A stretch of DNA of 32,000 nt from Nitrosopumilus ureiphilus (GCF_013407185.1 NZ_CP026995.1:340841-372840), one strand, 5' to 3'. Positions 11,698-30,164 are shown, numbered from the stretch's first letter. The notes: generated by a model from the letters alone, not told the origin. Program-made: numbers and translations.

Positions 11698-12735
11698 TTA
11701 GCTACTTATCCAGCCTAACTTTCTAAAATATGCAAACATCAGAATTGCTGGAATTGCTGATGCGAGTATGACTATTATGAATGTTGTAAAAGGACCTAGA
11801 AACATAGGGTTGTCTCCAATTCCACCTGGCAAGTTTACGTTCATTCCATAAAATGTACCAATTACTGTAGCTGGAATCGCTAATGTGAAAATAATCGTTA
11901 ATACTCCTAACACTTTGTTTGTTTTTTCAGTGCTTAAAACAAAGTCTGTATCTTTGTAAATTTCCATAGTTTCTCTTGATTCTTCTAATGTTTCAATTAC
12001 CTTGTCTATGTGATCAATTACATCATCAAAATACAATGTAAGTTCCTCGATCTCTCTGTCTGAATATCTGTCAATATTCTTTGCAATTTCTAATACAAAT
12101 TTCTTTAACGGGTTGGCTATTCTTCTCAATCTGTTGATTTCTCTTCTTAATAATGAAATACTTCTTGCTACGGATTTTCTTTCATCAAATACTCTGTCTT
12201 CCATCTCATCTAGATTTGCAATAATTTTTCTAGATGTATGTAAAAGATCATCTACTAACACATCTATTATTTCATGAAGTAAATGTCCTGGGGACTTTCC
12301 TAAAAGTCTCCTTTTTCTTTCTAGATCTGAATCACTAATACATAACTCCACTAATTCAACTAGTGGATTTAGATCTCCCTGATGTACAGTGATTAGAAAG
12401 TCTTTGCCTACAAAAATGGATAATTGACTGTTTTTAGATATTCCTACTTTTTGTGAAAGTGGTGGAAAATGTAAAATTACAAAGAAATGATTATCATAAC
12501 TGTCTAGTTTTGGAAGTTCAAATTTTGTCAAACAGTCTTCCACATTAAGTGTATTTAGATTGTGATCTTTTGCAATTTGTTCCATATGTCCTCTATCTGG
12601 ATTCTGAAGATCTAGCCAAGTAAATTTTCCTCCTTGGATTTTCTCCATTTTTCTTGCATTGACATCCTCTTCTTGGGGTCTTTTTCCTGTTCGCAATTTT
12701 TTGGTGATGAATCCTTTTTTCAAGTTGAAAAACAC
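11698..12735 (-). CDS. corA: CorA-family magnesium/cobalt transporter
   Basis: 345 aa with the 'YGMNV' (GMN) signature between two C-terminal TM helices and a large soluble N-terminal domain. Confidence 0.9.
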   Translation of the reverse strand: MFFNLKKGFITKKLRTGKRPQEEDVNARKMEKIQGGKFTWLDLQNPDRGHMEQIAKDHNLNTLNVEDCLTKFELPKLDSYDNHFFVILHFPPLSQKVGISKNSQLSIFVGKDFLITVHQGDLNPLVELVELCISDSDLERKRRLLGKSPGHLLHEIIDVLVDDLLHTSRKIIANLDEMEDRVFDERKSVARSISLLRREINRLRRIANPLKKFVLEIAKNIDRYSDREIEELTLYFDDVIDHIDKVIETLEESRETMEIYKDTDFVLSTEKTNKVLGVLTIIFTLAIPATVIGTFYGMNVNLPGGIGDNPMFLGPFTTFIIVILASAIPAILMFAYFRKLGWISS

Positions 12736-12993
12736 CCTAATACAACAAATTTAAAGCGATCGGCTTTATTTTGTTGAAAAACTAACACTTGGCTGCAAAC
12801 AAGAAATGTTTTAAAATTGAGCCTCTACTTGAATGGAAGTAAATAGTTCATTCCAACCCATGTTAATCCAATTGCTATTGCCATTGCGACCCACCATAAT
12901 CTCATACTACAAATTTTACCTAGTCAATAATAAATCTACAGTCTAATTACCAGCTAAAAGATTATTACAGGATAAACAAAGTTTCTTCCTTGT

Positions 12994-13066
12994 GGCCTTC
13001 GTAGTACAGTGGTTAGTATAGAGGATTGTGGATCCTCGGACAGGAGTTCGATTCCCCTCGAGGGCC
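12994..13066 (+). tRNA. tRNA-His (anticodon GTG) with encoded G-1
   Basis: Hand-folded cloverleaf. Acceptor GCCTTCG/CGAGGGC, D-arm GTAC-AGTGGTTA-GTAT, anticodon arm GAGGA-TTGTGGA-TCCTC, T-arm AGGAG-TTCGATT-CCCCT with one A-C mismatch. An extra 5' G pairs with discriminator C, which is the His identity feature. Confidence 0.85.
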
Positions 13067-13103
13067 TACATCATTAACCTTAATTCCCCCAAGAGGTTAT
13101 GAT

Positions 13104-14468
13104 ATGGCCAGATTGAAACAAAACGCCGGCCCATCTATGGATCTTTACAAGCTTGACAGGCAGTTGGATCGGATCTGGGGCCAGATAAGATCAGAACTAT
13201 CAAAACAAGACACCAAGCTGTTAGATGATTATGATACTGAGATGGTAAATGTCGGATTGGGCAAGGCAACAAGGCTCAAGCATTTGAAGGTACTTCTCTC
13301 ATTATCAAGACGAACCATCAAAAACTGGAACAAGATGACCGTAAATGACATCTCAAGTCTTGTCAAGAAAATAATGGATACGTACGGCGATGCAAACGGA
13401 GCTGAAACTGAATCATCACGAGACTTTAAGAAAGTTCTAAAGATATTTTTTAGGTGGCACAAGCTTGGCTCACGCGAATACAAAGAAGTTGGCGACCCTC
13501 CAGAGACTGCACGGATTCGATTAAAAAAACCAAAAGACAAGATTGCAAGAGAAAACCTGCTAGATGAAGATGACAGGACAAGACTTCTTCATGCATGCGG
13601 CGAGAACCTGCGAGACAAGGCATTTATCGATGTCCACTCTGAAGCCGGTACAAGGCCTGGCGAGATTCTTTCATTACGTCTTGGACATGTAAAGTTTGAT
13701 GAGTATGGAGCAATAATTCATGTGGATGGCAAGACCGGAGCAAGACCCATACGACTGGTAACGTCAACGCCAAATCTTTCTGCTTGGATAAATTCTCATC
13801 CACTAAGAGATGATCCTGAAGCTCCCTTGTGGATTTTATTGGACAAGGATAACTATGGTAATCCCATGACATATCCTGCAGCTACTGAAATGATCTCAAG
13901 ACGATGCAAAATAGCTCACATTACAAAAAGGGTCAACCTCAAACTGTTTCGACATTCTGAGGCCACTGCCACTGCAAAGTTTTTGACAGAATCAGAGATG
14001 AGAAAAAGACACGGATGGACAAACAGCTCCAACATGACCTCAAAGTATGTTCATTTAGTAGACTCTGATGTAGAGGAGAAGATCCTGTCACATTACGGTA
14101 TAATTAAAAAAGATGATGACCAAAACGACCTGCCAAAAACCTGTCATATTTGTGAGACCCGCAACTCTTCTCACTCTGTGACATGCTCAAAATGTGGAAG
14201 GCCATTGAACCTCAAAACCGCACTAGAACTTGATGTACGGGAACAAAAGATTGATGAAAAACTTGAATCATTGTCAAAGACAGTTGAGGAAAACAAACTA
14301 GTGATGATGCATTTTTCCAAGTTATTTGCATCTTCTCCTCCCAAGTTTCCAAACAATGATGAAGGCTATCTTATATCCCAGGTTTTAAAATTCATGGGTT
14401 ACGAAGAGATACACAAAAAAGCTGAAGAAAAACTGGCAACACTATACCCATACCCATACCCATCATAA
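13104..14468 (+). CDS. Tyrosine recombinase / integrase with C-terminal zinc ribbon
   Basis: Catalytic-region motifs 'AGTRPGEILSLRL' (Arg I), 'LFRHSEATATA' (H-x-x-R region) and 'SKYVHL' (Tyr). C-terminal 'CHICETRNSSHSVTCSKCG' forms a CxxC...CxxC ribbon. Start is placed at ATG 13104. The track ORF from 13026 reads through the tRNA. Confidence 0.85.
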   Translation: MARLKQNAGPSMDLYKLDRQLDRIWGQIRSELSKQDTKLLDDYDTEMVNVGLGKATRLKHLKVLLSLSRRTIKNWNKMTVNDISSLVKKIMDTYGDANGAETESSRDFKKVLKIFFRWHKLGSREYKEVGDPPETARIRLKKPKDKIARENLLDEDDRTRLLHACGENLRDKAFIDVHSEAGTRPGEILSLRLGHVKFDEYGAIIHVDGKTGARPIRLVTSTPNLSAWINSHPLRDDPEAPLWILLDKDNYGNPMTYPAATEMISRRCKIAHITKRVNLKLFRHSEATATAKFLTESEMRKRHGWTNSSNMTSKYVHLVDSDVEEKILSHYGIIKKDDDQNDLPKTCHICETRNSSHSVTCSKCGRPLNLKTALELDVREQKIDEKLESLSKTVEENKLVMMHFSKLFASSPPKFPNNDEGYLISQVLKFMGYEEIHKKAEEKLATLYPYPYPS

Positions 14469-14550
14469 AGTTATTTCCATAAACTACATGCAAAATCCAA
14501 ACAGATGAATCAAAAATTACCTTTAATGGATCTTTTTTGCGGATTGGGAG

Positions 14551-14634
14551 CAAAAGACTTTATCGATAATCAGTAAAAACAGTATCCCCCCGTTTTATTC
14601 GTAAATTTATGACGCTTTGTCGTAATGCTTAAGA
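14551..14634 (+). repeat. Left copy of ~84-nt direct repeat (palindrome TTATCGATAA at 14560-14569; hairpin TTATGAC-GCTTT-GTCGTAA at 14607-14625)
   Basis: Aligns by eye with 30082-30164 at roughly 85% identity. Two blocks are perfectly conserved: 'TTATCGATAATCAGTAAAAA' and 'TTTATGACGCTTTGTCGTAATG'. Confidence 0.8.
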
Positions 14635-14657
14635 AAATAAGATCATGAGAAAACAGT

Positions 14658-15002
14658 ATGACTAAATCAATCTTTGATTATATCTCTACAATCTCATTAA
14701 TCTTTTTACTATCAGGAGTGGGTATTTTAATGACTTTTTATGTTATACATGTTTTTTTTGAATGGCAATTTACTGATGGCAAAGATATTTTCAATTGGGT
14801 GGGATTAGTAGTTGAAATTGGCATAGCATTAGGAATTATTATTGCAGTGTGGTATTATACAAGAAATGAACAAACAAAAACCAAAAATTTAATTTCAAAT
14901 ATTCATGAAATTACAGAAAAACTAGACCGTGTGATTGCAGAACAAAACAAATTACAAAGTTCACGGAAACAATTCCTTCATGAATCATGTTTGGTAATTT
15001 AA
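14658..15002 (+). CDS. Hypothetical two-TM membrane protein with coiled-coil tail
   Basis: 114-aa ORF with two hydrophobic helices. It overlaps the next ORF by 16 nt. Confidence 0.45.
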   Translation: MTKSIFDYISTISLIFLLSGVGILMTFYVIHVFFEWQFTDGKDIFNWVGLVVEIGIALGIIIAVWYYTRNEQTKTKNLISNIHEITEKLDRVIAEQNKLQSSRKQFLHESCLVI

Positions 15003-15340
15003 TTAGTATTTTAAATTCGGCATATAATATTAGTCAAAATAAACCGATTCGTACTATTACTTGGCCTAATGGTAAGAAAGCAATCGAGTTAGATGAGTAT
15101 CAATCCCTTCATAACATGGCAGATGTTTTGAATGAAAGAATTTCACAATTTGGAAAATTAATGGAACCTGAACTATATGCTTCTGTAAGTACTGTACGTA
15201 ATTTACTCAAAGAAAGGAATATGGGTAAAGAAAATATGGATTTCATTATTCAGCAATCAAAAAGAAGTATTAATGCCATAGACACATCATTGTTTTCAAA
15301 AGATCACATTATTGGAACTGAGATTTTAGAAAAAGTTTGA
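14987..15340 (+). CDS. Hypothetical protein
   Basis: 117-aa ORF. Its stop overlaps the Cas1 TTG start (TTGA), suggesting co-transcription with cas1. Confidence 0.4.
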   Translation: MFGNLISILNSAYNISQNKPIRTITWPNGKKAIELDEYQSLHNMADVLNERISQFGKLMEPELYASVSTVRNLLKERNMGKENMDFIIQQSKRSINAIDTSLFSKDHIIGTEILEKV

Positions 15341-16376
15341 CAATCCAAGGAAAAAATAATCATTACAACATAAAACTACGAGGTTATGGTCATTCTATTT
15401 CTGTAAAAAATTCAAAATTAATTCTAAAGAATGGCAGACAGGACATTACTGGTGAACAAGAATCCGAATCATGGTTTGTCAAAAACATGCCATATGAAAA
15501 AATAATTCTATCAGGTAAAGGGTATGTATCCACAGAAGCATTATCACTACTTTCTCAAAATAATCGAAATGTAATTCTAGTTGACACTTATGGTAAACCT
15601 GTGACTTATTGCAACTCTATGATGGATTCTCTAACTGGAACAAAATATAGAATTGCACAATACGATACGTTTAGAGACCCTGAAAAATGTGAGTATCTGA
15701 CGAAGCAAATTCTAACAGCAAAAAAAGAATCACAACTAAAGTTATTACGATTAATTGGTAGTGACATTACCTCTCTACCTGAAAAAGAAAACTCTGCAGG
15801 ACGAGTCTATTTCAAAGAATTTGGTAAATTCATTCCTGAAAGGTACGGGTTTAATTCCAGAAATAATCATTCATACGTAATTCCAAGAACAATGCAACTG
15901 ATATCATCAATGCTTTGTTAAATTATGGGTATTCCGTTCTAGCAGGGGAAATTTCAAAATTTGTTTGTGGGTTTGGATTAGACCCTTACTTTGGATTCAT
16001 GCATAAATCTCATACGGGATTTCAACCACTAGTTTATGATATAATAGAACCATTTAGATGGATGGTGGATTATACGGTATTCCAAATAGCAAATAATTCA
16101 AGCAAAAGACACAGAATCAAACTCAAAGAATTTGTCCATACAAGAGAAGGAAATGTTGTGATGGATGGTTCTTTGATAAGACGATTTTTAGAAATATTGG
16201 ATAGGCAGATTCGGCAAGAAAGAAAGTATGATTTTAGGCACGGAAAGAAAACTGAAGATGGATTGAAATCGGTTCAAGAGATTACAATTGTGAAGATTAT
16301 GATTCAGAGATTGGCTGAATTTTGTTTAAACAATTCCACTCACTCACAAATTTACACTAGTGTGTTCTCCTCTTGA
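15337..16376 (+). pseudogene. cas1: Cas1-family integrase (casposase-like, Cas1-solo), interrupted by a frameshift near 15867-15921
   Basis: The N-terminal ORF (15337-15921) has a Cas1-like beta-rich N-domain and 'ENSAGRVYFKEF'. The Cas1 hallmark 'NATDIINALLNYGYSVL' and 'GFMHKSHTGFQPLVYDIIEPFR' lie in the -1 frame, continuing as ORF 15915-16376. Confidence 0.85.
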
Positions 16377-17837
16377 TTTCATCATATGATGTAATAAATC
16401 GCCACTAGACCACTGGAGTAATTTTTCATCATGTTCATATTTTTTTAATGTAGATAATTTTTCATTTTTATATTCTTCTTTATCTACTTTGAAAATTTTG
16501 ATATCGTCTGTATCTGATGACCTATATTCTGTGAATAAATGTCCACTTCTCCTCCAATTAGGTTTCGGATCATCTAATGAATATCTCACTAAAACAGATA
16601 CTGGAGATAACCATTTTTGTACATACTTATCTTCAATGTTAAATTTTTTGATCAGATATCGTTTAGACTCAATTTCTTCTTTAACCCACGTTCTAATTTC
16701 TTCATCGGTAAGATTACTTGCGTCAAACATTGGACAATGTGCTTTTTTATTAAATTCATTTATTATCCTTTCAACATTTTGTAATGCAGAATAAAATGGA
16801 TGTTTTAATGTTGACAAAATATTTTTACTCCAACTAAAAGATGTTCGTAAAAGGTTGTATCGTTCTGGAAGATTCTTTATTTCGTTATACAAGTTTTCAA
16901 TCATTGGAATTTTATCCATAATTCTAATCTCAACTTTATCTTTATCTTCTGACAAATACTGTGCTGTTAATATCATATCTAATTTACGGTTGATTAAAAT
17001 CAGATAATGTTTAGGTTTATTCCAAGTTGAATCAGCTAACTCTATTCTTGGAATTTGTTTTAAAATTTCATGATTAGCATCAATATAATCTTCATACCAT
17101 TTTTGTAACAATTGTTTAGAATCGTCAACGGATTGTGTAGACTCAGGTATTGTTTTCTTTTTTATAGATTCTTTCAGATTACTGGCTTCAGTAAAAAGTG
17201 GGAAAAGTGGTATCGGTGCTATTGGAATACGTTCTAAAACACTTATGCAAATCCCAATGTTTTGTAACTCTTTTTGAATATTTTTTAAATAATCATAAAT
17301 TTTATCAGAATTATCAGTTACTTCCATAATGCATGAATATACATTATCTTCAATCCATGTTTTGATGAAGAATCCTTTTGGTGTATACATTCCTTTGGAG
17401 AGGGAGGTGAAAGAATCATCATAATTTGTGTATGTGCCTCTAGGCGATCCACTTTGTGGAATCAAGATATCATAGAAAAATATGGATTCTAATGGCAAAT
17501 GTATGTTAAGATACACATGATTTATCAAATATGATGACAGATTATCATGTTCAGAAGGAATTGTAAATTCTACATCTCCCTCAATTAAATTATTTTGTAT
17601 TAGAATGTCTAGATGGTTTGTTATTGTGTCATTATGTATTTTAATTTCTTCAACGGTTAATGGTTGGGGTTGTTTACCAAAACTATTTTTAGAATCCAAC
17701 AATAAGATCGACGTTAAGAATTTTTGAGACACTTTGGTTTTATTGAAAGATTTTTGAATGCTATTAATAGCTGAAAGAGTTTTCCAAACATCTCTCTCAA
17801 AATCCAGATGATCGTATTTTGGTATGCCTATTTTCAT
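16344..17837 (-). CDS. Hypothetical 497-aa protein, possible N-terminal winged-helix domain, otherwise unrecognised
   Basis: Uninterrupted ORF. Its start overlaps the HD gene stop (ATGA at 17834-17837). Its 3' end overlaps the convergent cas1 3' end by 33 nt. 'LTVEEIKIHNDTITNHLDILIQNNLIEGD' looks wHTH-like. Confidence 0.55.
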   Translation of the reverse strand: MKIGIPKYDHLDFERDVWKTLSAINSIQKSFNKTKVSQKFLTSILLLDSKNSFGKQPQPLTVEEIKIHNDTITNHLDILIQNNLIEGDVEFTIPSEHDNLSSYLINHVYLNIHLPLESIFFYDILIPQSGSPRGTYTNYDDSFTSLSKGMYTPKGFFIKTWIEDNVYSCIMEVTDNSDKIYDYLKNIQKELQNIGICISVLERIPIAPIPLFPLFTEASNLKESIKKKTIPESTQSVDDSKQLLQKWYEDYIDANHEILKQIPRIELADSTWNKPKHYLILINRKLDMILTAQYLSEDKDKVEIRIMDKIPMIENLYNEIKNLPERYNLLRTSFSWSKNILSTLKHPFYSALQNVERIINEFNKKAHCPMFDASNLTDEEIRTWVKEEIESKRYLIKKFNIEDKYVQKWLSPVSVLVRYSLDDPKPNWRRSGHLFTEYRSSDTDDIKIFKVDKEEYKNEKLSTLKKYEHDEKLLQWSSGDLLHHMMKSRGEHTSVNL

Positions 17838-19102
17838 TTTTTTATCACCCTCACACTTGTAGGATCAACCTTAACATCTATCAGTAGAGGATTACAAATT
17901 TTCTTGATAGATTCTTCCAATGTTTCTGAACTAGTAACATTATATTGTATTGGAAGTGGGATTGTAATTCTACCTCCTTTGTTTAGAATAATTTCAATAT
18001 ACACTTTCAATTCCCCAGTATGTACTTTAAATAATTCCGATAGTTCTAGTAATGTTTTTGAATCTAGATGATCTTCATCACATTCTATTCTTACTATTCC
18101 TGATGGTTCTATATCTGATTTAATGTACATTCCAGATGCATAGTCTTTTAGTTGTACGTGTGAAAATGGCATTCTATAATCATCAAAAATGGATTTTACT
18201 GACTGTAATTCATTTTTTATTTCCTCTTGTACCCAATGAACAAGTTTGTATTGTTCTATCAATTCTTCCAATCTCTGTCCAAACGTTGTAACAATATCAA
18301 TAGAAGCGTATGTACGATTAAATTCTACTGCATTAACGAATGTATGTTTTTCCCAATGCTCTCGTGATTTTTCAGGAATAACATCATCAAATAATTCAAA
18401 TATTGTTTCTGGTGCTCGTCTATGATCAATATCTAATGAATCTGCTATTCTCAATATCGCAGATAATAAACGAGATTTTATACCTTCTCCATTTAATGAA
18501 CTCTCTTTTGCAATACTTTCTAAATCAATTTTCCTACTATGTCCTGCACAAATACTGACCAGAAGGGTTTCTTCAGAATTATCCATTTTACTAATTTGAC
18601 CTTTTTCTACTAGTTTTTCAATTACGTCTTTAACTCGTGCATGGTGATGGTTTCTGGCATCTTCTGGAGATTCATCTTCTTTTCTTCCCAACCACAATCC
18701 AATGTCATGAAACCAAATGGATAAAAGTGCAAGATAAATTTCACAACAGGATAGTTCTATTCCAGATTCTTCAATCATTTTTGAATAATTATTTTCAATT
18801 CTTTCAAAATGTTCTTTACCATGATCATTATAATATGCCCCCTGTACATTTAGAACGCTTTTTTCAAATGGTATTTGACTTGTCACAACTTTTTCAAGTA
18901 CTTCTTTTATCACTTCGAATTTAGAGTATTTGCAAACAGAACTGTCTCCGCAATCTTTTAGTTTTTTTTCTAATGGATGTGCCATACCCAACAAACAAAA
19001 TCCTATTTTGATACTATAAGACTTTTCATAACTTACTTTCATGAAAATGTTCATTTTCGTCATATCTATTCCAAATAACATTATTTTTTGAGATAATATC
19101 AC
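17834..19102 (-). CDS. HD-domain metal-dependent phosphohydrolase/nuclease-like protein with unknown C-terminal domain
   Basis: HD-superfamily residues in order: 'HGKEHFERI', 'WFHDIGLW', 'AGHSRK', 'RIADSLDIDH'. The start is uncertain: several in-frame Met codons lie between 19102 and 18985, and the longest form overlaps the PolB 3' end by 77 nt. Confidence 0.75.
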   Translation of the reverse strand: MILSQKIMLFGIDMTKMNIFMKVSYEKSYSIKIGFCLLGMAHPLEKKLKDCGDSSVCKYSKFEVIKEVLEKVVTSQIPFEKSVLNVQGAYYNDHGKEHFERIENNYSKMIEESGIELSCCEIYLALLSIWFHDIGLWLGRKEDESPEDARNHHHARVKDVIEKLVEKGQISKMDNSEETLLVSICAGHSRKIDLESIAKESSLNGEGIKSRLLSAILRIADSLDIDHRRAPETIFELFDDVIPEKSREHWEKHTFVNAVEFNRTYASIDIVTTFGQRLEELIEQYKLVHWVQEEIKNELQSVKSIFDDYRMPFSHVQLKDYASGMYIKSDIEPSGIVRIECDEDHLDSKTLLELSELFKVHTGELKVYIEIILNKGGRITIPLPIQYNVTSSETLEESIKKICNPLLIDVKVDPTSVRVIKK

Positions 19103-20528
19103 CTACCAAATCAATAGGAATAGGCACGGAATCACAGAATTTCTTCTCATTTAGTGATTCTAATTCAGAAAACCACATTCTCTTTCTGTCGGAATTTAAC
19201 CCAATTTTTTTATCATAAATTTCAATTTTCCCAACATCAGTAATTTTGTCATATCTAATACCACCTTTGATGTGAGTTGTTTTGGTAGTCTGTACTGTAA
19301 TGTAGAGTTGTCCTTTTTTGTTAATTTTAACCCCCAAATGCTCAATCTCTATTTTTCTTTCAGTATCATATCCAATTCCACGATTTTTCCAAACTCCATT
19401 GATAAAATAAAATCCATTTGATAGAAAAAATGTGTCATTGCCATATTTGTCTAGTTTCATTTCTCCTAATTTCTTGCTGTTCAAATTTTGAATCTTTTTT
19501 CTACATGCAACTGAATCAGTTGCAAAGGCCACAACATCTTTTTCTAAATCATTATCTCTGACAAACTTGTATAGTTGTGCTCTTGCAAAACCAGTAATAT
19601 AAGATGACATTATTGGATTAAACAAATTTCCCATGACGCCGTTTGTTCTCTGAGCCATCTTGCCATATACAGAGTTTAGAATTATTTTGATTGCCCTCTC
19701 TAATACATTTTGTTCTTTTTGTAATTGTAGTCTTTTTTGATATTGTGAATTGATAAAGTCTTTAAATGGATATGTAGTATTTTGATTTGCAATGAATTGT
19801 TGTGACTCTATAATTTTGTATTTAATTCTAGGATCATCTACTACTGCTTTGAGTTCTTCTAGTGTTACAAATGTTTCAAACTCTCCTGATGGATAAATGA
19901 TTCTGTTATTTTTTGTTCTAAATGGAAATGGAGATATCTTGACTTGATCAGATACAAATGCTCTGATGTGAAAGAATCCTATGGATGCCTTTGGGTTAAT
20001 TCTAGTAGAATGAATCCATTTACCATTAGTGATATCTGGAAGAAATGTCAATGCATAGGGATATGCTGAATTGATATCATAGATATAGCACTCTCCAATG
20101 AATCCGCGCTGAATTAGCTCAAATCGGCCTCCATAGAACGATTTCCAAGCCAAATCCTGAATTTCATAGGCAGAATCCACAAATCTTGGAATGTCCACAT
20201 CGTTGTATATGAGAACTTTTTCTGCCAAATATCCTGAGCTTACCCAGTTTGCAGTGTAAAACTTGTATGCATTGAAAAATGTATCAAGCCAATAGTCTGC
20301 CAATTCCCTGGTCATAATACAATCCATTAGGCAGTAATCTCTGATCTTTTTCTTGTTTCTCAAAAAATACCTCAAAGAGAAATTCTTTCGTTGGTTTTTT
20401 GTATCAATGTATCTCTGATCAAGAGGTTTTTTGATGTGTTCTGAATATGCAACTTTTAGAGGTTTGTTATCATAGTATTGTGCAATATCATAACATGAAA
20501 TAGAATGATTGCCTTTTCTAATTGTCAA
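19026..20528 (-). pseudogene. polB: Family-B DNA polymerase, 5'-truncated (ExoI/ExoII missing)
   Basis: Contains ExoIII-like 'YCLMDCIMT', 'YGGRFE', motif A 'YDINSAYPYA', motif B 'KIILNSVYGKMAQ' and motif C 'AFATDSV'. The ORF begins only at a TTG, with an in-frame stop ~15 codons upstream and no Exo I/II sequence. Confidence 0.8.
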
Positions 20529-20640: not shown

Positions 20641-22446
20641 TTAGTCAAGTGTATAGGATGCATATATTCCACTGTTAAAATCATTTGATGCTGCATCTCT
20701 GGAATAATATCCATCGTTATAGTACACAAAAACACCACCTTTAGGAGGTGTTCCAATTCCTACAATGTCACTTGGTTGGTACGGTTGTCCTGTTACCTTA
20801 TTTACATAATCTGTGGTAAGTGTATAGGATGCATATATTCCACTGTTAAAATCATTTGATGCTGCATCTCTGGAATAATATCCATCGTTATAGTACACAA
20901 AAACACCACCTTTAGGAGGTGTTCCAATTCCTACAATGTCACTTGGTTGGTACGGTTGTCCTGTTACCTTATTTACATAATCTGTGGTAAGTGTATAGGA
21001 TGCATATATTCCACTGTTAAAATCATTTGATGCTGCATCTCTGGAATAATATCCATCGTTATAGTACACAAAAACACCACCTTTAGGAGGTGTTCCAATT
21101 CCTACAATGTCACTTGGTTGGTACGGTTGTCCTGTTACCTTATTATTAGAACTTGTGGTAAGTGTGTATCGTGATAATATTCCACTGTTAAAATCATTTG
21201 ATGCTGCATCTCTAACATAAGATTCATTATCATAGTACACAAAAACACCACCTTTAGGAGGTGTTCCAATTCCTACAATGCTGTTTGGCTCTGGTTTACA
21301 ATTAGAATCAGATGGTGAAGCATTTTGTGGAACAGGATTTGTTAAAAGATCTTGCCAACAAATTGCCATGTTCTTATATGGTCTTAATGATGTTTCGACG
21401 TCTTGTTTAACACCTTCAATGTATCTCGAATGATGTTCATTTACATTTGATTCAGCATCACAATTTATCGTACATTTTGGTGCTGAGTGTTCAGGATAAT
21501 CCCACCCCATAATATCTTCATAATGAAAATTAGTTGCTGTATCATCAAAATAATATTTTGTACATACATCAGCATTACAATTGTTAACTGGTTCACTTTT
21601 AACATCACTTATTGTAGTAAGCCTAATTGGAGATACCTTGGGAAAAACTTCCCATACATGTTTTATCCGGTTTGGAACATAAGGATTTTTCAAATCCAAC
21701 GCATCCATTGTTTTATTGGGAGAAACAGTGGAATTAGACGAAAGTAGAGCTAATTCTTGCTCTATTCCAAAAAACATATTTGCTGACAAAAAGTAATTAA
21801 ATAAACTTTTGACATCCAGATTATTTGTGCTATCTTCTAGAGATATTATTGCATCAGGGAAAAGCCTACTATCGTCAAGGTATCCAGAAAGTATACCGTG
21901 CAGGCTACTATTGGTATAAGTGCCAGAATTTTTTCGGTTTTCGTACCTTTGTTGATCCTCATTCATTGTCCCAACAGCTACAAAGTATGGGTGTTTGATG
22001 TAAAATTCCTCTAATGTTATAACAACTTCATGTAATTGTTTAGCAAGATCGTCAGCAGTAAGAGTGGCACAATCTCCTCCTGATGGCCAAGCAGCTTCAA
22101 GTAATGCTACACCAATTACATCATAGGGGGGTGGTGCCCCAGCACCTACTAGACCTGTTGTTACTTGTCTTAGGATTTCTTCGGCAGAATTGCTCTTACA
22201 CTTATCAGACTCCCCACCCTCTGCTTGTTTTGGTTCTGGTTCACTACATAATCTATCTCCACAAACTAAGTTCTTTGTTGCCTGACCGTATTTTGTGTTT
22301 GATACACCATTACCTTTTACGGCATCAGCTGATTGTAAGAATGCAGATACTGACGAGGATATCAATACACTAATCAGCACTAATGTGATTATTGCCTTTG
22401 CATCTTTTCCCAACTTCATAAATATGATACAATGTGATTTATGCAT
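20641..22446 (-). CDS. Secreted or surface protein with four C-terminal 57-aa tandem repeats
   Basis: N-terminal signal/anchor 'AIITLVLISVLISSSVSAFLQSADA', a Cys-containing central domain, and a C-terminus of repeated 'VTGQPYQPSDIVGIGTPPKGGVFVYYNDGYYSRDAASNDFNSGIYASYTLTTDYVNK'. Confidence 0.7.
   Translation of the reverse strand: MHKSHCIIFMKLGKDAKAIITLVLISVLISSSVSAFLQSADAVKGNGVSNTKYGQATKNLVCGDRLCSEPEPKQAEGGESDKCKSNSAEEILRQVTTGLVGAGAPPPYDVIGVALLEAAWPSGGDCATLTADDLAKQLHEVVITLEEFYIKHPYFVAVGTMNEDQQRYENRKNSGTYTNSSLHGILSGYLDDSRLFPDAIISLEDSTNNLDVKSLFNYFLSANMFFGIEQELALLSSNSTVSPNKTMDALDLKNPYVPNRIKHVWEVFPKVSPIRLTTISDVKSEPVNNCNADVCTKYYFDDTATNFHYEDIMGWDYPEHSAPKCTINCDAESNVNEHHSRYIEGVKQDVETSLRPYKNMAICWQDLLTNPVPQNASPSDSNCKPEPNSIVGIGTPPKGGVFVYYDNESYVRDAASNDFNSGILSRYTLTTSSNNKVTGQPYQPSDIVGIGTPPKGGVFVYYNDGYYSRDAASNDFNSGIYASYTLTTDYVNKVTGQPYQPSDIVGIGTPPKGGVFVYYNDGYYSRDAASNDFNSGIYASYTLTTDYVNKVTGQPYQPSDIVGIGTPPKGGVFVYYNDGYYSRDAASNDFNSGIYASYTLD
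20647..21279. repeat. 171-nt tandem repeat, ~3.7 units, first three units essentially identical at DNA level
   Basis: The unit start 'AAGTGTATAGGATGC' recurs at 20647, 20818 and 20989. A diverged copy starts at 21160. Period 171 nt = 57 codons. Confidence 0.9.
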
Positions 22447-25670: not shown

Positions 25671-26456
25671 TCATTTTAATTTTTTTACCAATTCTTTTAA
25701 TGAAATAATTTCTTGCTCATCTAACATTTTCTTTATTTGTTCTTTGAGATCATCGGACATTGAAAAACAAAGACCTTCAGTACATAATTTTGTGTCAAAA
25801 GCACCTTCCATAGATTCGCTTCGTAATTCAGTAAGTTGGTGTAAATCTCCTTCACTTCGTTTTAGAATTTCAAGTTAAATGCTTTGCTTAAATCATCCTA
25901 TTTCCTCGTAATCTTTTTTCTATTCATCAGGTGAAAATGTTTCTGCAAGTTTTGATAAAGCCCCAATCCTGTTGGCCCATCTGATGTTGTTAGTTTATCT
26001 TGTAATGTGGAAGAAAGATTCAGAAGAGTCAAATATTTTTTTATCGTAGAAATAGAAACTTCAGTTTCTTGTGCAACTTTTGTATAATCATTATATTCTT
26101 CATAAATTGTTTTATAGGCTTTATCTTTATCAAGTGGATTCATATCTGCACGTTGAACATTTTCAATAAGAGAAATTATTGTCGCATCTGTATCATTTAG
26201 ATCAGATCTTATGATTGCAGGAATTGTGTTTAAACCAATTTTTTTACTAGCAAGAAATATTCTTTGCCCCGCAATTAAATCATATTTTCCATATTTGTTT
26301 TTTCTCACCATGATTGGATTTAGAAGTCCTTTTTCCCGAATACTGTTTTTGCTAAATCATCCAAACTTGCTTCTTAGGTACCTACACCTAAATCCTTTCT
26401 AGTGTTAAATTTACATATGTCAATTTCATCAAGACTTAACTCTTTGATATCCACAT
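25671..26456 (-). pseudogene. ParB/Srx-like nuclease-domain protein, degraded by a stop and multiple frameshifts
   Basis: The intact core (25898-26311) carries 'GLLNPIMVRKN..YDLIAGQR' and 'ENVQRADMNPLD'. The upstream N-terminus 'MWISKELSLDEIDICKFNTRKDLGVGT*EASLDDLAK' is in another frame with a TAA. The junction falls in an A5 run. The C-terminal continuation is spread over other frames down to ~25671. Confidence 0.65.
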
Positions 26457-26504
26457 ACGAAATTAAGATATAGTGATTTAAATGATTTAATTAATTTCTG
26501 AAGT

Positions 26505-27632
26505 ATGAGAATAGTACATTTTTCAGATACTCATTTAGGACATGGAGATTATTCTTCGATTGATCAAGAAACAGGATTAAATCAAAGAGAGGTAGATATC
26601 TACACAGTTTTTCGAGAAATAATTGACTACATACTAGAATCTAAACCAGATTTGGTTGTTCATGCAGGAGATCTTTTTGATATGGTACGTCCATCCAATA
26701 AAGCAATTTCTGAGGCACTACAACAATTTCATAGATTATCTGAAGCAAAAATTCCATCAGTGATTATTGCAGGAAATCATTCTACTCCACGACAAAAAAC
26801 CAAAGAAACAATTTTTAGAATTTTTGATTTTATTCCATATGTTTTTCCTATATATGGTGGAAAATATAGCAAAAACATTATTGGTGATTGTGCGGTTCAT
26901 GCAATTCCTCACACATACTCACAATTAGAATTACAAGAGAATTTATTTCAACTGGAAATGGATACTAAATGCAAATACAACATTTTTGTGACTCATGGTA
27001 CGGTTCAAGATATTAGTGATAATTCTTGGATAGAATTTAAAGAACAAATTATTCCAAATTCTGTATTCGAATATGGTTTTGATTATATTGCATTGGGACA
27101 TTTCCACTCTTTACAAAAAATTAGAGATAATGCATATTATTGTGGGTCTCCTGAACGATTAAGTTTTAATGAAGTAAAACAAGAAAAATATTTTCTCGAA
27201 ATAGATCTAGATACTAAATCAATAAAGAAAGTCCCTACACAAACACGTATGATGATTGATTATCAAAGTATTGATTGTGAAAAATTAACTCCAGATCAAA
27301 TTATTAAATCTGTACAAACTTTGGTTGATGACAAAACAAAAGACAGCATTATTCGATTAAAATTTGACAATATTTCTAGAGAGACATATTCAAATCTTGA
27401 TCGACAAAAAATTGCTGAATTAACTAAAGATGCAATTCATGTTGATCACAATTTCAATTTTATAAATGAAATTTCAAATGGGCAAACCATCACTTCCTCA
27501 ATGGGTAGCTTAAGTGAAGAATTTGAAACCTTTCTAAAAAAACAAGATTTGTCTGATGAAAGATTTGATTTGATGAAAAATATGGGTTTGGACTATCTTA
27601 GTAAAGTTGAGGATAAGGGAATAATAGAATAA
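26505..27632 (+). CDS. mre11: Mre11/SbcD-family nuclease
   Basis: Calcineurin-like phosphoesterase motifs in order: 'HFSDTHLG', 'HAGDLFD', 'IAGNHS', 'VTHG', 'GHFH'. 375 aa. Confidence 0.85.
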   Translation: MRIVHFSDTHLGHGDYSSIDQETGLNQREVDIYTVFREIIDYILESKPDLVVHAGDLFDMVRPSNKAISEALQQFHRLSEAKIPSVIIAGNHSTPRQKTKETIFRIFDFIPYVFPIYGGKYSKNIIGDCAVHAIPHTYSQLELQENLFQLEMDTKCKYNIFVTHGTVQDISDNSWIEFKEQIIPNSVFEYGFDYIALGHFHSLQKIRDNAYYCGSPERLSFNEVKQEKYFLEIDLDTKSIKKVPTQTRMMIDYQSIDCEKLTPDQIIKSVQTLVDDKTKDSIIRLKFDNISRETYSNLDRQKIAELTKDAIHVDHNFNFINEISNGQTITSSMGSLSEEFETFLKKQDLSDERFDLMKNMGLDYLSKVEDKGIIE

Positions 27633-30058
27633 TGCAAATTAATAGCATAGAACTAGAAAATTTTAGGCGTTACAAAGAGGAAATTATTGAGTTTCCTACG
27701 GGATTGATAGGAATTGTTGGGCGAAATGGTGTTGGAAAATCGACTTTGGTGGAGGCTCTAGCATGGTGTCTTTATGGTTCTGATGCTGCACGAACCAAGC
27801 AAGATGAAATCAAACGTAGTCAAGCAAAGGAGCGGGAAAAATGCAGAGTCATTATTGAATTGACTTTTGAGTCGGATGCTTTAAAGATAGAACGAATTCT
27901 GAGCGGAAAAAATTTCACTCCATCTGCAAATTTGTATCTTAATGGCAATCCAAATCCTCATGTAAGTGGTACAAAAGCTGTTACCGATTACATCACACAT
28001 AGAACTAAAATGGATTATGTTGCATTTATCACATCAATTTTTGCACGACAAAAAGACTTAGATGGATTAACTGGAATGACTGGAGCTACAAGAAGAAAAA
28101 CAATTCTAAGATTATTACGAATTGATCAAATTGAAGATGCAATCAAAATGATAAAGGAAGACAGTAAACAAAATGAACTACAAATTCAACAAATAGAAAA
28201 ATATGTCAAAGATGTATCTATATTGGAAAAAGAATTACAAAATATGCAAACACAAGTACAAATTAGACAAAAATCAATTACAATTAACCAAAAGAAAGTA
28301 AATATTCTTAAAAAATCATTAGAAGAACACGAACATAGATTTTCAATATTAGAAGAAAAATATGTCAAACATCAAGAGATTAATACAAAAATAGAAGGTC
28401 TCAAAGGACTAATACAAGGACATAACCAAGAAAAGATCACATTAACAAAAAAGCTTGACGAATCACTTGAAGCAAAAAAAGTATTAAATAAATTAAAACC
28501 AAAACTTGATAAATTTGAAAAAATTAAAAAAATAAAAGTAGAATTAGATTCTTTAGAATTAAAATTTACAGAAAAATCTTCTTTAGAGGATCAACTTAAA
28601 AATTGTAAGAATAAGATATCAGACATGCAAACAAAAATATCTAGTTTTCATGAATCAATAAAATCCTATGGAAATTTAGATTCCAAAATTAATCTTATGA
28701 ATGAAGAATTAAGAAAATTAGAAGATGATTTGAATAATCAAAAACAACAGCAAAATCAAATTGACAGCAAAATCTTTGAAAAAGCTAGTCGTAAAAATGA
28801 ACTAAATGCAGAATTAATTGAAATTCAAGAACTTGGAGATAAAAGCGAATGCCCAAAATGCAAAAGACCCCTTGAAGATACAGTAGAAAAATTAGTTGGA
28901 ATTATAACACAAAATATTCAATCGATCACAAAAGAAATTGATTCTTTTACAAAAGAACAAGAAATTATACTAAAACATACTGACAATGTTGGAAAACAAA
29001 TTACTCTAAAAAAACAAGAAAGAGAAGAAATTGAGAATCAAATCCAGATTAAAAATAATTTGTTGACAAAAATAGGAGAAAATACAAAGATATTAGAATC
29101 ATATCAAGATGAAGAAAAAACTATTCAAAACAATTTATTTAATTTTAAGGGGATAAATTACGATAAAGCCAAACATGAAGAAATCAAATCTGAATTTCAA
29201 AAACTAGAAAAAATATATCAAAATTCAATTGCTTTAAATGAACATGTAAAACAAATCGACATATTAAATTCTCAAGTTGATTTAGTCGGTAAAGATATTG
29301 ACACATCTACTAAACAACTACATTCCAAAAATACAGAATTAACTACAATAAATTTTAATGAAACAGAATATCAAAAAGTCAAAGGAAAAAAATATGAGGC
29401 CAATATAGAACATCAAACTAATCGTGAGAATTTAATTAAAGAAGAACAAGAATTACTTCAAGTTAAGGATCAAATTCAACAACAAGAAAATACGATTAAA
29501 GAAGAAAAACAAAAGCAAGATGAAATCAAAAAAATACAATCAACATTACAAGAATTATCTACACTCAAAAAATTAATGATTGATTTTAAATCAGATTTAA
29601 TGGTTAGAATAAAACCACAACTAGCTGCAAAAACTTCCTCTCTTCTCAAACAAATTACCAATGGCAGATATACTTCTGTTGATTTTGATGATGACTTTAC
29701 GTTGAAGATTAATGATGAAGGAATAAATCATAATATTAAACGATTTTCAGGTGGAGAAACGGATCTTGTAAATTTGTGTCTTCGAATTGCAATTTCTGAA
29801 GAATTATCTCAAAGATCTGGAGGTTCAGGTACTCAAATTATAATACTAGATGAAATTTTTGGTAGTCAGGATGAAAGAAGGAAAGCAAGCATCCTTCAAG
29901 CATTGCATGAATTAACTAGTAAATTTAGACAAATATTGCTCATCACCCATGTTGAAGATGTTAAGGATGCTTTACCTTATGTGCTCAATATAACGGAGAA
30001 TCCAGATAATACTGTAAGTATTGAAGAAGAAGGTACTTTACCGATACCAATTGAATGA
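27632..30058 (+). CDS. rad50: Rad50/SbcC-family SMC-like ATPase
   Basis: Walker A 'GRNGVGKST', a very long Lys/Glu/Gln-rich coiled coil with central 'CPKC' zinc hook, signature 'FSGGETD', Walker B 'IIILDE', and 'ITHVED'. The start overlaps the mre11 stop (TAATG). Confidence 0.85.
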   Translation: MQINSIELENFRRYKEEIIEFPTGLIGIVGRNGVGKSTLVEALAWCLYGSDAARTKQDEIKRSQAKEREKCRVIIELTFESDALKIERILSGKNFTPSANLYLNGNPNPHVSGTKAVTDYITHRTKMDYVAFITSIFARQKDLDGLTGMTGATRRKTILRLLRIDQIEDAIKMIKEDSKQNELQIQQIEKYVKDVSILEKELQNMQTQVQIRQKSITINQKKVNILKKSLEEHEHRFSILEEKYVKHQEINTKIEGLKGLIQGHNQEKITLTKKLDESLEAKKVLNKLKPKLDKFEKIKKIKVELDSLELKFTEKSSLEDQLKNCKNKISDMQTKISSFHESIKSYGNLDSKINLMNEELRKLEDDLNNQKQQQNQIDSKIFEKASRKNELNAELIEIQELGDKSECPKCKRPLEDTVEKLVGIITQNIQSITKEIDSFTKEQEIILKHTDNVGKQITLKKQEREEIENQIQIKNNLLTKIGENTKILESYQDEEKTIQNNLFNFKGINYDKAKHEEIKSEFQKLEKIYQNSIALNEHVKQIDILNSQVDLVGKDIDTSTKQLHSKNTELTTINFNETEYQKVKGKKYEANIEHQTNRENLIKEEQELLQVKDQIQQQENTIKEEKQKQDEIKKIQSTLQELSTLKKLMIDFKSDLMVRIKPQLAAKTSSLLKQITNGRYTSVDFDDDFTLKINDEGINHNIKRFSGGETDLVNLCLRIAISEELSQRSGGSGTQIIILDEIFGSQDERRKASILQALHELTSKFRQILLITHVEDVKDALPYVLNITENPDNTVSIEEEGTLPIPIE

Positions 30059-30081: not shown

Positions 30082-30164
30082 CAAAAGAAATTATCGATAA
30101 TCAGTAAAAATGGTATCCCCTGTTTTGTGAGTGATTTTATGACGCTTTGTCGTAATGTTTAAGA
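30082..30164 (+). repeat. Right copy of ~84-nt direct repeat (palindrome TTATCGATAA at 30091-30100; hairpin at 30137-30155)
   Basis: See the left copy at 14551-14634. Same orientation, and the same two perfectly conserved blocks. Confidence 0.8.

Follow-up and report, generated by a model that had tools for sequence, protein, structure and literature searches.

We analyzed by computation a 32,000-nucleotide (nt) window of Nitrosopumilus ureiphilus DNA, to which all positions refer unless another locus is named. On its minus strand the window carries two adjoining genes that lie between damaged copies of cas1 and polB. The upstream gene (17834..18985; WP_179372050.1) encodes an HD-CE phosphohydrolase of 383 amino acids (aa), with an ATG start at 18985 and a TGA stop at 17834-17836. 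The downstream gene (16344..17837; WP_179372049.1) starts with ATG and encodes a 497-aa protein, here called the partner. An earlier note, made from the sequence alone, had described two intact minus-strand open reading frames (ORFs) that overlap by ATGA, and both features were recovered: at 17834..17837 (minus strand) the partner ATG (17837-17835) lies over the HD TGA (17836-17834). The same note had extended the HD ORF up to 19102. The longest ORF as listed (17834..19102, minus strand, 422 aa, GTG start) crosses the polB stop at 19026, and in an alignment of 14 sequences all 13 homologues begin at the equivalent of M40 ('M.HPLE'). Because of this overlap and the homologue starts, the gene most likely begins at ATG 18985 and not at 19102, leaving a spacer of 40 nt between polB and the HD gene.

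A TATA-like box, TTATAGTAT (19011..19019, minus strand), precedes the HD ATG by 26-34 nt. The box is kept at the homologous loci L001 and L002, and a TATA-like sequence is found at L003 and L006, making it a candidate for the pair's own archaeal promoter. A bacterial promoter and terminator scan of the window was uninformative, the models being bacterial and the host archaeal. Over 16139-19308 the DNA of L001 and that of the window are 82% identical. Comparison of the two loci gave a ratio of nonsynonymous to synonymous substitution rates (dN/dS) of 0.11 for the HD gene and 0.28 for the partner, at an unsaturated dS of 0.5-0.7. Given these ratios and the existence of homologues, the two ORFs are genuine genes and not chance ORFs.

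The HD protein, which the earlier note had left unplaced beyond a general HD motif, belongs to a named family. It matched the Pfam model HD-CE (PF24391) with an E-value of 1.5e-29 and a score of 103.9 bits, the cut-off being 27, over model positions 3-263 of 263, and its UniRef name is HD-CE domain-containing protein. No other HD family in Pfam, Cas3-type HD models included, matched at E <= 0.01. In PADLOC-DB 2.0 the only match was a weak, domain-level one to the C-terminal phosphohydrolase of RT_UG24 (2.1e-5, 120 residues). The catalytic domain spans residues 51-258 (18212..18835, minus strand). Conservation was scored as invariant columns across 14 subfamily sequences, down to 25% identity. 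The complete metal-binding set anticipated by the earlier note, H...HD...H...D, corresponds to H59, H93-D94, H149 and D182, and is invariant in 14/14. Also invariant are D54, H55, E82, E105, H114, D185, W211 and H214, together with seven arginines (R62, R111, R117, R151, R179 and R190 among them). Since the metal ligands and the other pocket residues are invariant, the enzyme is expected to be catalytically active, and the arginine-rich pocket appears compatible with a polyphosphate substrate. HD-CE reportedly stands for a 'conflict effector' HD phosphohydrolase, a name said to go back to Nicastro, Burroughs, Iyer and Aravind in 2023 (NAR 51:11479). According to the available part of PMC12871103, which cites Nicastro et al. 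2023, the 'CE' families have been proposed as predicted nucleotide-targeting immune effectors. The HD protein thus falls into a family that already has a name and for which a function has been predicted by computation.

Homology of the HD protein to other HD-CE proteins stopped at about residue 280 in hhalign comparisons. Beyond it lies a C-terminal domain specific to this subfamily (approximately residues 283-383; 17837..18139, minus strand), for which we read a beta-alpha-beta-beta-alpha-beta pattern. The unassigned C-terminal part, put at ~190 aa by the earlier note, shrinks to ~100-125 aa when the extent of the HD-CE domain (51-258) and of the hhalign homology (to ~280) is taken into account. 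As its presence tracks that of the partner (see below), we propose that this is a docking or regulatory domain. Elsewhere, HD-CE proteins are fused to a GHKL ATPase, to a MarR/TrmB winged helix-turn-helix (wHTH) or to EAD7+REC, or have a TPR protein adjacent. These architectures support a logic of effector plus variable sensor.

The partner, in agreement with the earlier note, was otherwise unrecognizable. It matched no housekeeping or other family in Pfam, PADLOC (E <= 1), NCBIfam, PHROGs or the PDB sequences. A word-indexed search of 5.8 billion proteins returned 4 clusters of the partner family, and an exhaustive profile search of 1.84 billion representatives returned 30. When the word-indexed search was repeated with the resulting 30-sequence alignment, only the four close homologues came back. 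The 30-sequence profile found nothing in the PDB, and no Pfam family was common to the 30 members. Lone weak matches to Mkg_C KA1, RaiA and DUF4367 were dismissed, not being common to family members.

AlphaFold2 (AF2) modeling of the partner gave a predicted local distance difference test score (pLDDT) of 64.9 with four sequences. With 30 sequences the pLDDT was 90.7 and the predicted template modeling (TM) score 0.86. Four parts were delimited, all on the minus strand. A winged-helix-like domain is placed at residues 1-112 (17502..17837) by the AF2 secondary structure, and over the N-terminal ~100 residues Foldseek gave its one convincing local similarity, to winged-helix DNA-binding domains: those of E2F/DP (1cf7_B, probability 0.87, TM-score 0.56) and of the MarR-type HpaR. 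The N-terminal wHTH suspected in the earlier note is thus supported by the AF2 model. It is present in about half of the partner family; the others are short forms of ~400 aa that lack the domain (alignment A2). Domain A (residues 128-232; 17142..17456) is predicted by AF2 and alignment A2 to form a beta3-alpha-beta unit followed by a conserved LPxxxIxLFPxF motif. Module B (residues 236-345; 16803..17132) is modeled as a long helix plus beta3-alpha-beta, and module B' (residues 378-490; 16368..16706) is its duplicate: in an hhalign self-comparison of the profile, 241-335 was homologous to 378-479 with a probability of 91-93%. Ahead of B and B' lies a third such unit, which has diverged further. 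Conservation centers on R393, which is invariant, the near-invariant W384 and G432, the prolines P205, P213 and P347, and motifs such as WYxDY and HP[YF]. As none of the conserved motifs resembles a known catalytic signature, we take the partner to be a putative binding or regulatory, non-enzymatic protein.

One of the HD-CE fusions mentioned above is an 833-aa protein of the Bacillus mycoides plasmid p507 (L022, 5851-8352), in which HD-CE is joined to a GHKL (HATPase_c_3) ATPase. This fusion suggested that the partner might be a GHKL/HSP90 module that had become a separate protein. The idea was rejected: no HATPase_c match was found in the 30 members, hhalign against the HD-CE-GHKL fusion gave a probability of 0.2%, and Foldseek matches to HSP90-N had TM-scores <= 0.2 with a root-mean-square deviation of about 20 A.

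The two genes are strictly paired. Every partner homologue on a readable contig had an HD-CE gene, encoding 381-398 aa, immediately upstream on the same strand, and every full-length member of the HD subfamily with downstream DNA had the partner next to it. The pair was seen in ~14 lineages (the window, L001-3, L006, L008, L010-12, L014, L016-17 and L027-28; L030 repeats the arrangement of L016). It is conserved as a coupled unit, with an NTGA overlap at 8/11 junctions; at the remainder the genes are 9-10 nt apart or overlap by 17 nt. The two genes thus co-occur in all of these lineages. At ~40 loci the HD-CE protein has no C-terminal domain, and the partner was found at none of them. The partner thus goes with the C-terminal domain, and on this ground we propose that the two are in contact. 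Pairwise identities of the HD proteins and the partners were correlated (r = 0.94), the partner always diverging faster. A scan of genome contigs returned one subfamily member, on a Patescibacteria contig that ends short of the partner position; the scan missed N. ureiphilus itself. The plasmids scanned carried other HD-CE architectures only. On Clostridium botulinum plasmids, an HD-CE gene adjoins a gene for a TPR protein.

Casposons are Cas1 transposons, the presumed source from which CRISPR adaptation arose. The signature of family-1 casposons, a Cas1 casposase plus a protein-primed PolB (pPolB), is found in the window, with both genes damaged as the earlier note had stated. The casposase gene cas1 (15337..16376, plus strand) is convergent with the partner gene, their 3' ends overlapping by 33 nt. 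Both of its halves matched Pfam Cas_Cas1, and a tblastn comparison with the Cas1 of L002, which is intact at 355 aa, placed a single frameshift near 15865-15880. The pPolB remnant (19026..20528, minus strand; Pfam DNA_pol_B_2, 2.8e-24) is without the N-terminal 127 aa; its identity to the L002 PolB (625 aa) is 65% over residues 128-613 of the latter. No convincing inverted repeats or casposon terminal inverted repeats flank the region, and an unrelated repeat protein of 601 aa occupies the place of the casposon genes upstream of polB. The window thus contains a casposon remnant and not a complete element.

At L002 and L008 the pair is located between intact pPolB and Cas1 genes, and the L002 element lies directly next to aEF-2, where family-1 casposons usually insert (PMC6563490). 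A casposon of another type abuts the pair at L006, a metagenome-assembled genome of Nitrosotalea (12630-18293); its Cas1 (411 aa) is 27% identical and its PolB (907 aa) is unrelated to pPolB. The neighborhood of L006 (Peptidase_M24, DUF1512, FAD oxidase, tRNA_bind) is also that of L003, where the pair adjoins a TIR protein. Elsewhere the pair occurs far from any Cas1, and at L003, L027 and L030 it resides in chromosomal islands without a recognizable mobile-element core. Its neighbors include a TIR/ThsB-like protein, a SIR2_2 protein, an RHS toxin and Cas4-like nucleases; further, type IIG and ISP restriction enzymes with transposases (L010); and a cluster of QueC, TGT (DpdA-like) and a second HD-CE. 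At L010 the partner gene is broken up into two ORFs (1148-2633), owing either to a frameshift or to an assembly error at low coverage (2.7x). The pair does not sit at a ubiquitous syntenic core locus; it is rare and accessory, and its contexts vary. These observations support movement of the pair between mobile elements and conflict islands. At L001, where a homologous tyrosine integrase is adjacent, only the pair and short 3' stubs of cas1 and polB are kept. The dN/dS ratios between L001 and the window show purifying selection on the pair despite the decay of the casposon core.

Other features surround the remnant. A tRNA-His gene (ARAGORN) followed by a tyrosine integrase gene (Pfam Phage_integrase) occupies 12994..14468 on the plus strand, and in blastn the integrase was 67% identical to the one near the pair at L001. 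The 3' end of the tRNA-His has no second copy in the window, leaving the far edge of the island undefined. The two copies of an 84-nt direct repeat (86% identical; 14551-14634 and 30082-30164) enclose the casposon remnant and ~11 kb beyond it, and the same sequence recurs at 15111-15186 of L001, near the homologous integrase. This repeat may serve an integrase island as a site of attachment or of regulation. The ORF for the 601-aa protein (20641-22446, minus strand), at the site of the missing casposon 5' part, has a signal-like N-terminus and no match in Pfam or PADLOC. It contains 3.7 near-identical tandem repeats of 171 nt (57 aa) at 20647-21280. Farther on, the stretch 25898-30058 contains a ParB-like ORF that is truncated, then a gene for a Metallophos protein and one for an SMC/ABC-type ATPase of 808 aa; the ATPase has generic matches to AriA, LmuB, PbeC and mad3. 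The Metallophos protein and the ATPase could form an Mre11-Rad50 or a defense ATPase pair.

How might the pair function? On balance we favor, as somewhat probable, a self-contained mobile conflict module of the defense or abortive-infection type, composed of an effector and a sensor or regulator. The upstream gene would provide an active, metal-dependent HD-CE phosphohydrolase. By analogy with the HD-CE family, the enzyme may destroy free nucleotides, (deoxy)nucleoside triphosphates ((d)NTPs) or a related phosphoester, and the loss of nucleotides would stall replication of the invader and of the cell. The non-enzymatic partner encoded by the coupled downstream gene would dock on the HD C-terminal domain and hold the enzyme inactive until a trigger is sensed. 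We infer that sensing would be mediated by the tandem alpha/beta modules of the partner and, in the archaeal forms, also by the winged-helix DNA-binding domain. Casposons and integrase islands would spread the pair as cargo; in N. ureiphilus the casposon would have decayed and the pair would have been retained by selection. A fuller version of this proposal is more tentative, and we regard it as possible rather than probable. It holds that the pair is an uncharacterized immune system in which a sensor of new fold gates the HD-CE enzyme via the docking domain, with casposons as vehicles and hosts that keep the module.

Several points weigh against this interpretation. The neighborhood evidence is anecdotal, with about eight informative contexts and no enrichment statistic. 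In the scans, viral contigs yielded no relative and plasmids no pair, and hence there is no pointer to a target. The partner model had no significant Foldseek match in the PDB or BFVD, so that its fold gives no functional clue. A wHTH on the downstream protein equally fits a plain transcriptional regulator. Finally, we know of no experiment on this pair or on any HD-CE protein. The proposal of the earlier note, a candidate accessory or defense pair, is upheld as far as rarity, accessory status, mobility, coupling and, on anecdotal evidence, conflict-gene neighborhoods are concerned, but PADLOC-DB 2.0 gave no system-level match for the pair.

Much of this evidence could also be accommodated by an addiction module resembling toxin-antitoxin (TA) systems, in which an HD-CE toxin depletes nucleotides and the partner neutralizes it and autoregulates the operon through its wHTH. 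The pair would then stabilize its casposon or island rather than protect the host. Strict pairing, tight coupling and location on mobile elements would be expected of such a module, as would persistence beyond the decay of the carrier, a wHTH on the putative neutralizer and a TATA-like box just upstream where an autoregulator could bind. However, proteins of 383 and 497 aa are far above the size of classical type II TA components, the DNA-binding protein is encoded downstream and not upstream, and half of the partner family lacks the wHTH. Moreover, the faster evolution of the partner and the TIR, SIR2 and restriction-modification neighbors fit immune sensors at least as well. We consider the addiction explanation unlikely; it and the conflict-module interpretation are not mutually exclusive. 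Quite improbable is a role as counter-defense cargo, with the HD enzyme destroying nucleotides of host immune signaling, such as cyclic oligonucleotides, or modified nucleotides and the partner serving as regulator or specificity factor. The HD superfamily does include cyclic-nucleotide phosphodiesterases, casposons of two types carry the pair, and the products of the adjacent TIR and SIR2 genes make or consume signaling nucleotides. Yet purifying selection has maintained the pair where its casposon is defunct, it occurs in islands without a recognizable mobile-element core (L003, L027, L030), and none was found on the viral contigs scanned.

The remaining two explanations tie the pair to its casposon neighbors. 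The earlier note had been intrigued by the adjacency of an HD protein to Cas1, since HD is also the nuclease domain of Cas3. Some HD domains, such as those of Cas3 and Cas10, are nucleases, and together with the wHTH of the partner and the adjacent cas1 of the window this would suggest a DNA-targeting pair in which the HD protein cuts nucleic acid and the partner guides it, possibly in cooperation with Cas1. This is the least supported of the four rival explanations, and we judge it very unlikely; the idea of a link to Cas3 or CRISPR was rejected. HD-CE is the best and sole strong family of the enzyme, with no Cas3-type HD model at E <= 0.01, no helicase is encoded next to the pair, and no CRISPR array was found in the 32 kb. 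The Cas1 itself is a casposase that is frameshifted here and absent from many loci, the pair being found also far from any Cas1, and the wHTH is dispensable in half of the partner family. A part in the casposon life cycle, in which the pair would help the element to replicate or transpose (through end processing, priming or control of local dNTPs, for instance), has in its favor the order polB-HD-partner-cas1, kept in three family-1 lineages (window/L001, L002 and L008) with the HD gene 37-50 nt after polB. We nevertheless hold it to be very unlikely: described family-1 casposons share cas1, polB and 3-4 small genes and are without the pair (PMC4046053; PMC6563490), the pair is also found where there is neither Cas1 nor PolB, in contexts both bacterial-like and archaeal, and it outlives the casposon core.

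If the conflict-module interpretation is correct, the pair would be a nucleotide-targeting system with a sensor from a previously unplaced family. Ammonia-oxidizing archaea abound worldwide, and few defense systems are known from them. The conserved pair offers a concrete case for probing the HD-CE effector prediction, and the bacterial short-form homologues offer experimentally tractable forms of it. The pair is a clean natural example of cargo retention, with purifying selection acting on the cargo of a casposon whose cas1 and polB are decaying, and it bears on ideas of how a connection arose between Cas1 elements and the immunity of their hosts. In the literature and databases searched, the HD-CE defining paper excluded, we found neither the partner family nor the C-terminal domain, the pairing or the carriage by casposons.

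The pair resembles HD-CE effector systems (PF24391) in its complete set of catalytic residues, its coupled, putatively non-catalytic module and, on anecdotal evidence, its conflict-gene neighborhoods. In contrast to HD-CE systems generally, the module is a separate protein of a family absent from Pfam and the PDB, and the carriers are casposons in ammonia-oxidizing archaea; the extra C-terminal domain of ~100 aa sets this subfamily apart from all other HD-CE proteins. The size of the components (383 + 497 aa) and the gene order differ from those of type II TA systems. UG24 (class 3 UG/Abi) reverse transcriptases, a group predicted to act in defense, have a related HD phosphohydrolase as presumed effector, as far as the available part of the source describes them (PMC9226505). 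The match is weak (2e-5, 120 residues), and unlike UG24, the pair contains no reverse transcriptase and has a different partner. The variable cargo of Thaumarchaeota family-1 casposons comprises OLD, NERD, HNH, Cas4 and HEPN nucleases, and the portion of the survey available to us does not mention an HD protein (PMC6563490). The pair is like this cargo in bringing a conflict-type enzyme to the variable position that pPolB casposons have between polB and cas1. It differs in that the cargo listed in that portion includes no HD-CE pair, and in that the cargo here outlives the casposon. Finally, the mechanism proposed here, a sensor-controlled phosphoesterase that would abort infection by collapsing nucleotide pools, is analogous to that of PUA-Calcineurin-CE-HAD, as presented in the available part of its description (PMC12871103), and of SAMHD1/dGTPase-type dNTPase defenses. 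Compared with PUA-Calcineurin-CE-HAD as described there, the pair has an HD fold instead of calcineurin/HAD, lacks a PUA sensor and is known from its genes alone.

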